A stretch of DNA of 62,941 bases, filler included, from Rozella allomycis CSF55 (taxonomy: Eukaryota): NCBI GenBank assembly GCA_000442015.1. It is 17 parts of 17 records of this genome, joined end to end, with 100 filler letters (N's around TTAATTAATTAA, not from the genome) between each part and the next. Parts side by side here need not be neighbours in the genome. Positions count along the whole stretch, not along the records: positions 52,321 to 56,299 come from KE560408.1; 16 more parts are not named here. One strand, given 5' to 3'. This document shows, piece by piece, positions 54,880-55,852 of this stretch (its first letter is position 1; the number at the start of each line of letters is the position of its first letter). Below the pieces are notes generated by a model. The model was not told the origin of the DNA. It saw nothing but the letters and a program-made list of their open reading frames with translations, and ran no database searches. A program made the translations under genes and the position numbers.

Positions 54880-54895
54880 GGCCTTCAAAAAGGCC
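54880..54895 (-). promoter_or_regulatory. Histone 3'-UTR stem-loop (H3): GGCCTT-TTTG-AAGGCC
   Basis: 6-bp stem and 4-nt loop starting 20 nt after the H3 stop; GG..CC base and U-rich loop as in the SLBP-binding consensus. Confidence 0.8.
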
Positions 54896-54915
54896 ATAAA
54901 ACTTAACAAGAAAGC

Positions 54916-55335
54916 TTAATTGCTGCGTTCACCGCGGATGCGTCTTGCCAATTGGATATCCTTTGGCATGATAGTAACACGTTTAGCATGGATAGCACAG
55001 AGGTTAGTGTCTTCAAACAAACCAACGAGGTAAGCTTCAGCAGCTTCTTGCAAAGCACCGATAGCAGCAGATTGAAAACGGAGATCTGTCTTGAAGTCTT
55101 GAGCAATTTCACGAACGAGACGTTGAAATGGCAATTTGCGGATCAACAATTCAGTGGATTTCTGGTAGCGGCGAATTTCACGGAGCGCGACAGTTCCTGG
55201 TCTGTAACGGTGAGCCTTCTTGATACCACCGGCACCGGATGCTGGAGCGGACTTGCGGGCAGCCTTGGTTGCCAATTGTTTGCGTGGAGCTTTACCACCA
55301 GTAGATTTACGTGCAGTTTGCTTGGTACGTGCCAT
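54916..55335 (-). CDS. H3: Histone H3 (H3.3-type AAIG motif, 2-aa tail insertion), intronless
   Basis: [20 protein letters not shown]...[24 protein letters not shown]. Confidence 0.99.
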
Positions 55336-55500
55336 ATTTGTTGAATTGTACCAAATTCCGATCTGAATTTATATGCCTATTTGCGCGCCAAAAGTAGCCA
55401 ATCAGATGCATCCATTTTTGGCGGGAAATATTTGAGCAACATGCAGTGACCCTAGCTTGTAGGGTATAAATAGATCGCACATTTGCAAAAACCCATCAAC
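55336..55500. promoter_or_regulatory. Bidirectional H3/H4 promoter with two E2F-type sites, a CCAAT box and two TATA boxes
   Basis: TTTGCGCGCCAAAA 55380-55393; CCAAT 55398-55402; TTTGGCGGGAAA 55417-55428; TATAAATA 55465-55472; minus-strand TATAAA at 55368-55373. Confidence 0.7.
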
Positions 55501-55812
55501 ATGACTGGACGTGGAAAAGGAGGAAAAGGATTAGGAAAATCTGGAGCTAAACGCCATCGCAAAATCTTAAGAGATAACATCCAAGGTATTACCAAGCCAG
55601 CTATTCGTCGTCTCGCACGTAGAGGTGGTGTTAAGCGTATCTCTGGATTGATTTATGAAGAAACCCGCTCAGTTCTTCGTACATTCTTGGAAAATGTTAT
55701 TCGTGACTCTGTTACTTATACTGAACACGCCAAGAGAAAGACTGTTACTGCTATTGATGTTGTCTATGCTCTCAAGAGACAAGGGCGTACATTGTACGGT
55801 TTTGGATTATAA
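55501..55812 (+). CDS. H4: Histone H4, intronless
   Basis: [48 protein letters not shown]... Confidence 0.99.
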
Positions 55813-55836
55813 ATCAGTAATGGTTTAGTAATACTC

Positions 55837-55852
55837 GGCTTCTTTAGAAGCC
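55837..55852 (+). promoter_or_regulatory. Histone 3'-UTR stem-loop (H4): GGCTTC-TTTA-GAAGCC
   Basis: 6-bp stem and 4-nt loop 24 nt after the H4 stop; close to the metazoan GGCTCT-TTTC-AGAGCC. Confidence 0.85.

Follow-up and report, generated by a model that had tools for sequence, protein, structure and literature searches.

Probable SLBP-type stem-loops downstream of a divergent histone H3/H4 gene pair in the early-diverging fungus Rozella allomycis

The stretch of DNA analysed here (the window) is 62.9 kb long and consists of 18 short Rozella allomycis contigs chained by N44-TTAATTAATTAA-N44 linkers. The histone contig occupies positions 52321..56299 (3979 bp) and carries one histone H3 and one histone H4 gene, which are divergently transcribed and separated by 165 bp. 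Both ORFs matched histone-fold families in Pfam, and a hairpin was found shortly after each stop codon. The features of the gene pair are listed below.

54916..55335, minus strand: histone H3 gene, intronless, 139 aa (uninterrupted ORF; PF00125, 162 bits)
55501..55812, plus strand: histone H4 gene, intronless, 103 aa, C-terminal GFGL (uninterrupted ORF; CENP-T_C, TAF and Histone matches)
55336..55500, not assigned to a strand: shared divergent promoter, 165 bp, delimited by sequence and motif count
About 35 nt upstream of each ATG, within the promoter 55336..55500: TATA-like box, one per gene
55398..55402, within the H3-H4 intergenic promoter: CCAAT box
55385..55392, minus strand: E2F-like TTTGGCGS motif in the intergenic promoter
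55417..55424, plus strand: E2F-like TTTGGCGS motif in the intergenic promoter
54880..54895, minus strand: H3 3' stem-loop GGCCUU-UUUG-AAGGCC, 20 nt past the stop
55837..55852, plus strand: H4 3' stem-loop GGCUUC-UUUA-GAAGCC, 24 nt past the stop

The H3 protein is H3.3-like (AIG), has a 2-residue insertion in its N-terminal tail, and ends in ERSN. The absence of introns from both genes, claimed in the earlier note, was confirmed by the uninterrupted ORFs. The same note had many neighbouring genes carrying introns, and this was checked in part: two annotated Rozella proteins, P0121 and P0123, track the biotin-protein-ligase (BPL) ORFs of the window for 309 and 140 residues, respectively, and then diverge from them, as would be expected of spliced genes. 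A six-frame motif scan of the window recovered H3 and H4 only, with no H2A, H2B, or SLBP motifs, and a search of the window for U7 gave no match at E values up to 5.

In the shared promoter, the two E2F-like motifs flank the CCAAT box (55380..55424). The motif TTTSGCGS, which we take to be the E2F consensus, occurred 16 times in the window (3.74 expected), and this number was reached in 0 of 100 shuffles. The boxes are described here as putative transcription factor sites. Components of the E2F-Rb system are kept in varying combinations by many early-diverging fungi, according to the available text of a published survey (PMC9457484).

Both hairpins lie on the mRNA strand of their histone gene, and each has a fully paired 6-bp stem and a 4-nt loop. 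The base of both stems is formed by two G-C pairs, the 5' arm is pyrimidine and the 3' arm purine (GGYYYY..RRRRCC), and positions 1 and 3 of both loops are U (UUUG and UUUA). Sequence, strand, and spacing from the stop were exactly as had been noted before. When the 62.9 kb were searched on both strands for GGYYYYTYTNRRRRCC, two matches were obtained (0.04 expected), at the H3 and H4 hairpins only, and two matches were reached in 0 of 100 shuffles. Perfect hairpins with a 6-bp stem and a 4-nt loop numbered 28 per strand in the window, and three had a GG..CC base; the third of these, at 9062, is a full palindrome and has no U-rich loop.

The earlier claim that the two stems differ in sequence and still pair fully held as well. 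Pair 4 is C-G in H3 vs U-A in H4, pair 6 is U-A vs C-G, and none of the six pairs is broken; in this comparison of two full sequences, the stem structure is kept through compensatory change. When the 3' UTRs were folded, both hairpins were part of the minimum-free-energy structure, and the z-scores of the whole UTR stretches (68-71 nt) against shuffled sequences were modest (-1.41 and -2.27).

An Infernal comparison with the Rfam histone stem-loop family (RF00032) had been proposed and was carried out on the window. At gathering thresholds, Rfam reported two tRNAs and no histone stem-loop in the whole window. The H4 hairpin scored 26.9 bits on the plus strand, below the gathering score of 34 (E 4.2e-5 in a 1.3-kb search, E 0.002 over the whole window), and was the sole non-tRNA Rfam match with E <0.01 among the nine rows returned at relaxed thresholds. 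The mRNA strand of H3 gave no match at E values up to 10, and 14.7 bits were obtained in antisense.

For a model independent of the Rozella sequence, 80 metagenome loci encoding H4 were collected, of which 75 were evaluable (five either lacked a stop or extended too little past it). A perfect 6/4 hairpin was found within 120 nt past the stop in 45 of the 75 loci, and the form GGYYYY-N4-RRRRCC in 33. These 33 stem-loops, with 6-nt flanks, were used to build a covariance model (R1), which was run unfiltered over all of the window, with E values up to 10. Among the 12 rows obtained, the H4 hairpin ranked first (17.9 bits, E 0.0029), and the H3 hairpin ranked second, on the correct strand, with core positions 7-22 only (12.9 bits, E 0.13). 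Because the model placed the H4 hairpin first and the H3 hairpin second, the cores of both are considered typical of the family. In the 33 references, G7, G8, C21, and C22 were invariant, and the columns of loop U1 and U3 were at least 90% T. Near-identical cores (GGCCTTTTTAAAGGCC) were present in the environmental loci L066 and L072, and L050 and L057 combined a TTTA loop with C-G as the top pair. No close relative of Rozella was found among the 75 environmental H4 loci, none of which (0/75) encoded the GFGL end, and hence no covariation series was available; most of the H4 proteins in this set ended in GFGG.

The flanks of the hairpins are of another kind. In the 33 references, the 5' flank was A/C-rich and ACC followed directly 3' of the stem. 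The H3 hairpin of Rozella is flanked by 5' UUUUAU and 3' GCCUGG, which are unlike the references, and the H4 hairpin by 5' AUACUC and 3' AUUCCU, where the A directly 3' of the stem is the one point of agreement. The low Rfam scores are attributed to these non-canonical flanks. In animals, the flanks of the hairpin matter for binding and processing.

Contigs from three DNA sequencing runs (X1, X2, and X5) and one RNA run (X10) were compared with positions 54400..56299. The comparison added the following features.

54734..54850, not assigned to a strand: tandem duplication of 117 bp that spans the N at 54737; 54733 is joined directly to 54851 in the contigs of X1, X2, and X5
55835..55870, plus strand: block exactly common to at least one other H4 copy; loose ends 55835 and 55870/55872 in X2
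55862..55866, plus strand: AAAGA sequence inside the common H4 block (+10..+14 from the hairpin)

The H3 hairpin region (54851..55030) showed 0 differences in the contigs of X1, X2, and X5. Since the 117 bp at 54734..54850 were skipped in all three DNA runs, they are regarded as an assembly artefact, which lies outside the element. Other single Ns in the window (e.g. 14142, 16604, 17021, 57001, and 57245) also seem to mark unmerged overlaps that produce short tandem duplications. Several window ORFs repeat the same peptide on either side of an X, and two tRNA genes of identical sequence, 13921..13994 and 14210..14283, flank the N at 14142 and may be one gene. ORFs in 56344..58301 (minus strand), putatively N-terminal parts of a Prp22/DHX8-type helicase by translation, contain a block (RLTSPERWDIKQMISSG) repeated across Ns.

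Several further H3 and H4 copies were present in the runs, with coding parts 13-17 letters apart per contig and with different 3' UTRs. In the 30 letters visible of the UTRs of further copies, the start of a hairpin (GGCTT...) was found 19-23 nt past the stop, and in one further copy the loop starts with TATA, so that U is kept at positions 1 and 3. The block 55835..55870 comprises the H4 stem-loop and approximately 18 nt downstream, and the other copy that shares it diverges on both sides. Such exact sharing hints at a constrained element just 3' of the H4 hairpin, which could be where cleavage occurs or could serve as a downstream element. No purine-rich stretch like the H4 AAAGA was found within 30 nt of the H3 hairpin, and for this reason a common downstream element for the two genes is not visible. 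A contig of X5 labelled as organism B had 33 differences over 55634..56091, and none of the 15 differences listed fell in 55819..55873; this was not counted as conservation. In the RNA run X10, the contigs covered coding parts only, with 85-95% likeness; that is, they appear to come from other organisms.

With good confidence, we regard the H3 and H4 hairpins as SLBP-type histone 3' stem-loops. Position, strand, 6-bp/4-nt architecture, GG..CC base, U at loop positions 1 and 3, and compensatory pairs were all observed directly, in fungal DNA. Against this reading count the failure of both hairpins to reach 34 bits, the match of H3 to R1 at E 0.13 with the core only, the non-canonical flanks, the missing common downstream element, an AATAAA hexamer after both hairpins, the modest z-scores of the UTR folds, and the Blastocladiomycota transcripts that have both stem-loop and poly(A) (10.64898/2026.10.14.759114). 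In the mechanism proposed, a Rozella SLBP would bind the hairpins, and this binding would couple 3' end formation, stability, or translation of the mRNA to S phase.

Compared with the metazoan element (RF00032), the Rozella hairpins are alike in the 6-bp stem, the 4-nt loop, the GG..CC base, the pyrimidine and purine arms, and the loop U1 and U3, as well as in their position shortly past the stop of intronless genes. They lack both flanks of the Rfam consensus, A-rich on the 5' side and ACC(C)A on the 3' side, and differ further in the C-G top pair of H4, in scores below gathering, in the H3.3-like type of the H3 protein, and in the lack of a purine-rich downstream element common to H3 and H4.

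Histone stem-loops in R. allomycis are already in print, in a recent bioRxiv preprint (Zhao, Bond, Ni Leathlobhair, 16 Oct 2026; 10.64898/2026.10.14.759114). [quoted passage not shown] Species, element type, and evolutionary reading are the same as here, and the spacing is approximately 26 nt there vs 20 and 24 nt here; the detector was a relaxed 6/4 hairpin scan, and the stem-loops found by it are assumed to be identical with the present loci. In the same portion of the text, Cryptomycota are SLBP-positive with loci mostly of the SLBP-SL-PAS class, SLBP is reported absent from Dikarya, and no fungal genome is reported to have LSM10 and LSM11 together, LSM10 being given for Massospora only (10.64898/2026.10.14.759114). 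In Blastocladiomycota (Allomyces H2A and Catenaria H4), also early fungi whose histone 3' UTRs contain a stem-loop, RNA-seq revealed that poly(A) follows this element, whereas no Rozella transcript ends are described in the available text (10.64898/2026.10.14.759114).

Physarum polycephalum is another non-animal organism with histone stem-loops. As far as the available text of that report goes, they lie 30-51 nt past the stop, most of its histone mRNAs have both a stem-loop and a PAS, and SLBP and LSm10/11 are present (PMC8600027). In contrast to Rozella, Physarum is an amoebozoan and not a fungus, and protein factors and transcripts were examined there (PMC8600027).

Two further features, relevant to how the 3' ends of the Rozella histone mRNAs are made, were recorded downstream of the hairpins.

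55888..55893, plus strand: AATAAA hexamer, possible poly(A) signal, 36 nt past the H4 stem-loop
54820..54825, minus strand: AATAAA hexamer, possible poly(A) signal, 55 nt past the H3 stem-loop, inside the duplicated stretch

By one account, which is a serious possibility even if we would put it below an even chance, the hairpins are of the SLBP type, but the AATAAA further on is where the mRNAs are cut and receive their poly(A) tails, with the hairpin serving stability or translation and not 3' end formation. The hexamers 36 nt (H4) and 55 nt (H3) past the hairpins are consistent with this, as are the missing animal-type 3' flank and common downstream element. It also agrees with the stem-loop and PAS in Physarum histone mRNAs (PMC8600027), and with the prevailing SLBP-SL-PAS class of Cryptomycota and the poly(A) tails after the stem-loops of Allomyces and Catenaria, as the preprint's available text gives them (10.64898/2026.10.14.759114). 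However, AATAAA is frequent in this AT-rich DNA (2.6 per kb per strand, at which one within 100 nt is expected in approximately one quarter of cases), and the hexamers past the hairpins may therefore be due to chance. The 18 nt past the H4 hairpin that are exactly as in another copy suggest constraint there, and LSM11, FLASH-like domains, and a U7-like RNA are reported for the species (10.64898/2026.10.14.759114); both speak against polyadenylation at the distant signal.

Cleavage next to the SLBP-type hairpin is judged slightly more likely than read-through to an AATAAA 36-55 nt further on. A possible guide is the U7-like RNA predicted in the preprint (10.64898/2026.10.14.759114). That animal-like cleavage a few nt 3' of the hairpin is the main mode is put forward tentatively, as a proposition close to evenly balanced. 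More doubtful is the extended version, in which the complete animal-type module for replication-dependent histones operates in R. allomycis, from promoter to poly(A)-less mRNA. Here, divergent promoters driven by E2F and CCAAT would give rise to transcripts, SLBP would sit on the hairpin, a U7-like snRNP would cleave a few nt downstream, and the mRNAs would carry no poly(A); the block 55853..55870 would be the fungal counterpart of the histone downstream element. If this were true, Rozella would provide the first case of a U7-type pathway at work in a fungus, and the complete module would predate the animal-fungal split.

That the hairpins have nothing to do with SLBP and are palindromes due to chance, or terminator-like structures of a generic kind, is very improbable. 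Such an origin would fit their scores below the Rfam gathering score, the non-canonical flanks, and the number of loci directly examined, which is two. It is opposed by the shuffles, none of which in 100 had two matches, and by the placement of both hairpins 20-24 nt past histone stops on the sense strand. It is further opposed by the compensatory changes in the stems, the top two ranks with the independent model R1, and the same hairpin start in other histone copies.

The SLBP-type reading concerns fungi to the extent that the histone contig is of Rozella origin. Rozella is placed in Rozellomycota, Fungi, by the NCBI taxonomy. Both BPL ORFs of the window were 100% identical to named R. allomycis CSF55 proteins, over 140 and 309 residues. 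They are copies on different contigs (45016..46041, plus strand, and 51181..52206, minus strand), correspond to the N-terminal portion of the enzyme (BPL_N, 232 bits), and are each identical to a different R. allomycis protein, as paralogues or diverged haplotypes would be. The GC content of the histone contig was 36.9%, compared with 33.6-43.2% across the other 17 pieces, and longer contigs of the three DNA runs, under two organism labels, carried the histone genes with their flanks.

Other genes of the window were recorded along with these. An intronless Hsp104/ClpB gene (21942..24596, plus strand, 884 aa) had its best named matches at 61-64% identity, mostly in Amoebozoa, with one record labelled Albugo; Basidiobolus was the only fungus among the 120 matches listed. 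This pattern is odd for a fungal gene. Having no close named relative, it was set aside as a taxonomic anchor. By visual inspection of their translations, the ORFs at 25203..26453 and 29398..30072 (both plus strand) may encode protease/reverse-transcriptase and integrase segments of an LTR retroelement. The ORF adjoining H3 (53981..54481, minus strand) encodes 166 aa with a hydrophobic N-terminus and several cysteines, and for this ORF no Pfam family was matched and no relative but itself was found in 5.8 billion proteins searched at near lengths.

Contamination of the histone contig is unlikely: the account in which the 3979 bp derive from a host, animal, or protist, so that nothing follows for fungi, can point to the window being made of short linker-joined contigs, in which neighbourhood is no proof of linkage, and to the neighbour ORF that finds only itself, but it is made extremely improbable by a GC content within the range of pieces that include two 100% Rozella contigs, by the longer contigs from three runs and two organism labels, by the GFGL end in 0/75 environmental H4 loci, and by the stem-loops of this type described for R. 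allomycis in the available text of the preprint (10.64898/2026.10.14.759114).

Because the window is Rozella allomycis, as the two genes with 100% identity indicate, the proposal of the earlier note that an early-diverging fungus keeps the stem-loop system is supported; the core features of the hairpins are in line with it, and so is the available text of the preprint (10.64898/2026.10.14.759114). A literature search found no paper before this preprint that made the point about SLBP stem-loops for Rozella or chytrids. As the point is already made there, the work presented here confirms it independently, at a single H3/H4 locus, and adds the compensatory pairs, the ranking by R1, the non-canonical flanks, the evidence from other copies, and the block past the H4 hairpin.

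In the textbook view, fungi polyadenylate their histone mRNAs and are without the SLBP/stem-loop system. The SLBP-type stem-loops of Rozella suggest instead that an ancestral eukaryotic system would have been kept in this lineage and lost in Dikarya. Since Rozella stands near the base of Fungi and has the stem-loops, the system would be ancestral: animals and fungi would have received it from their shared ancestor, and its loss would have come later, inside the fungi.
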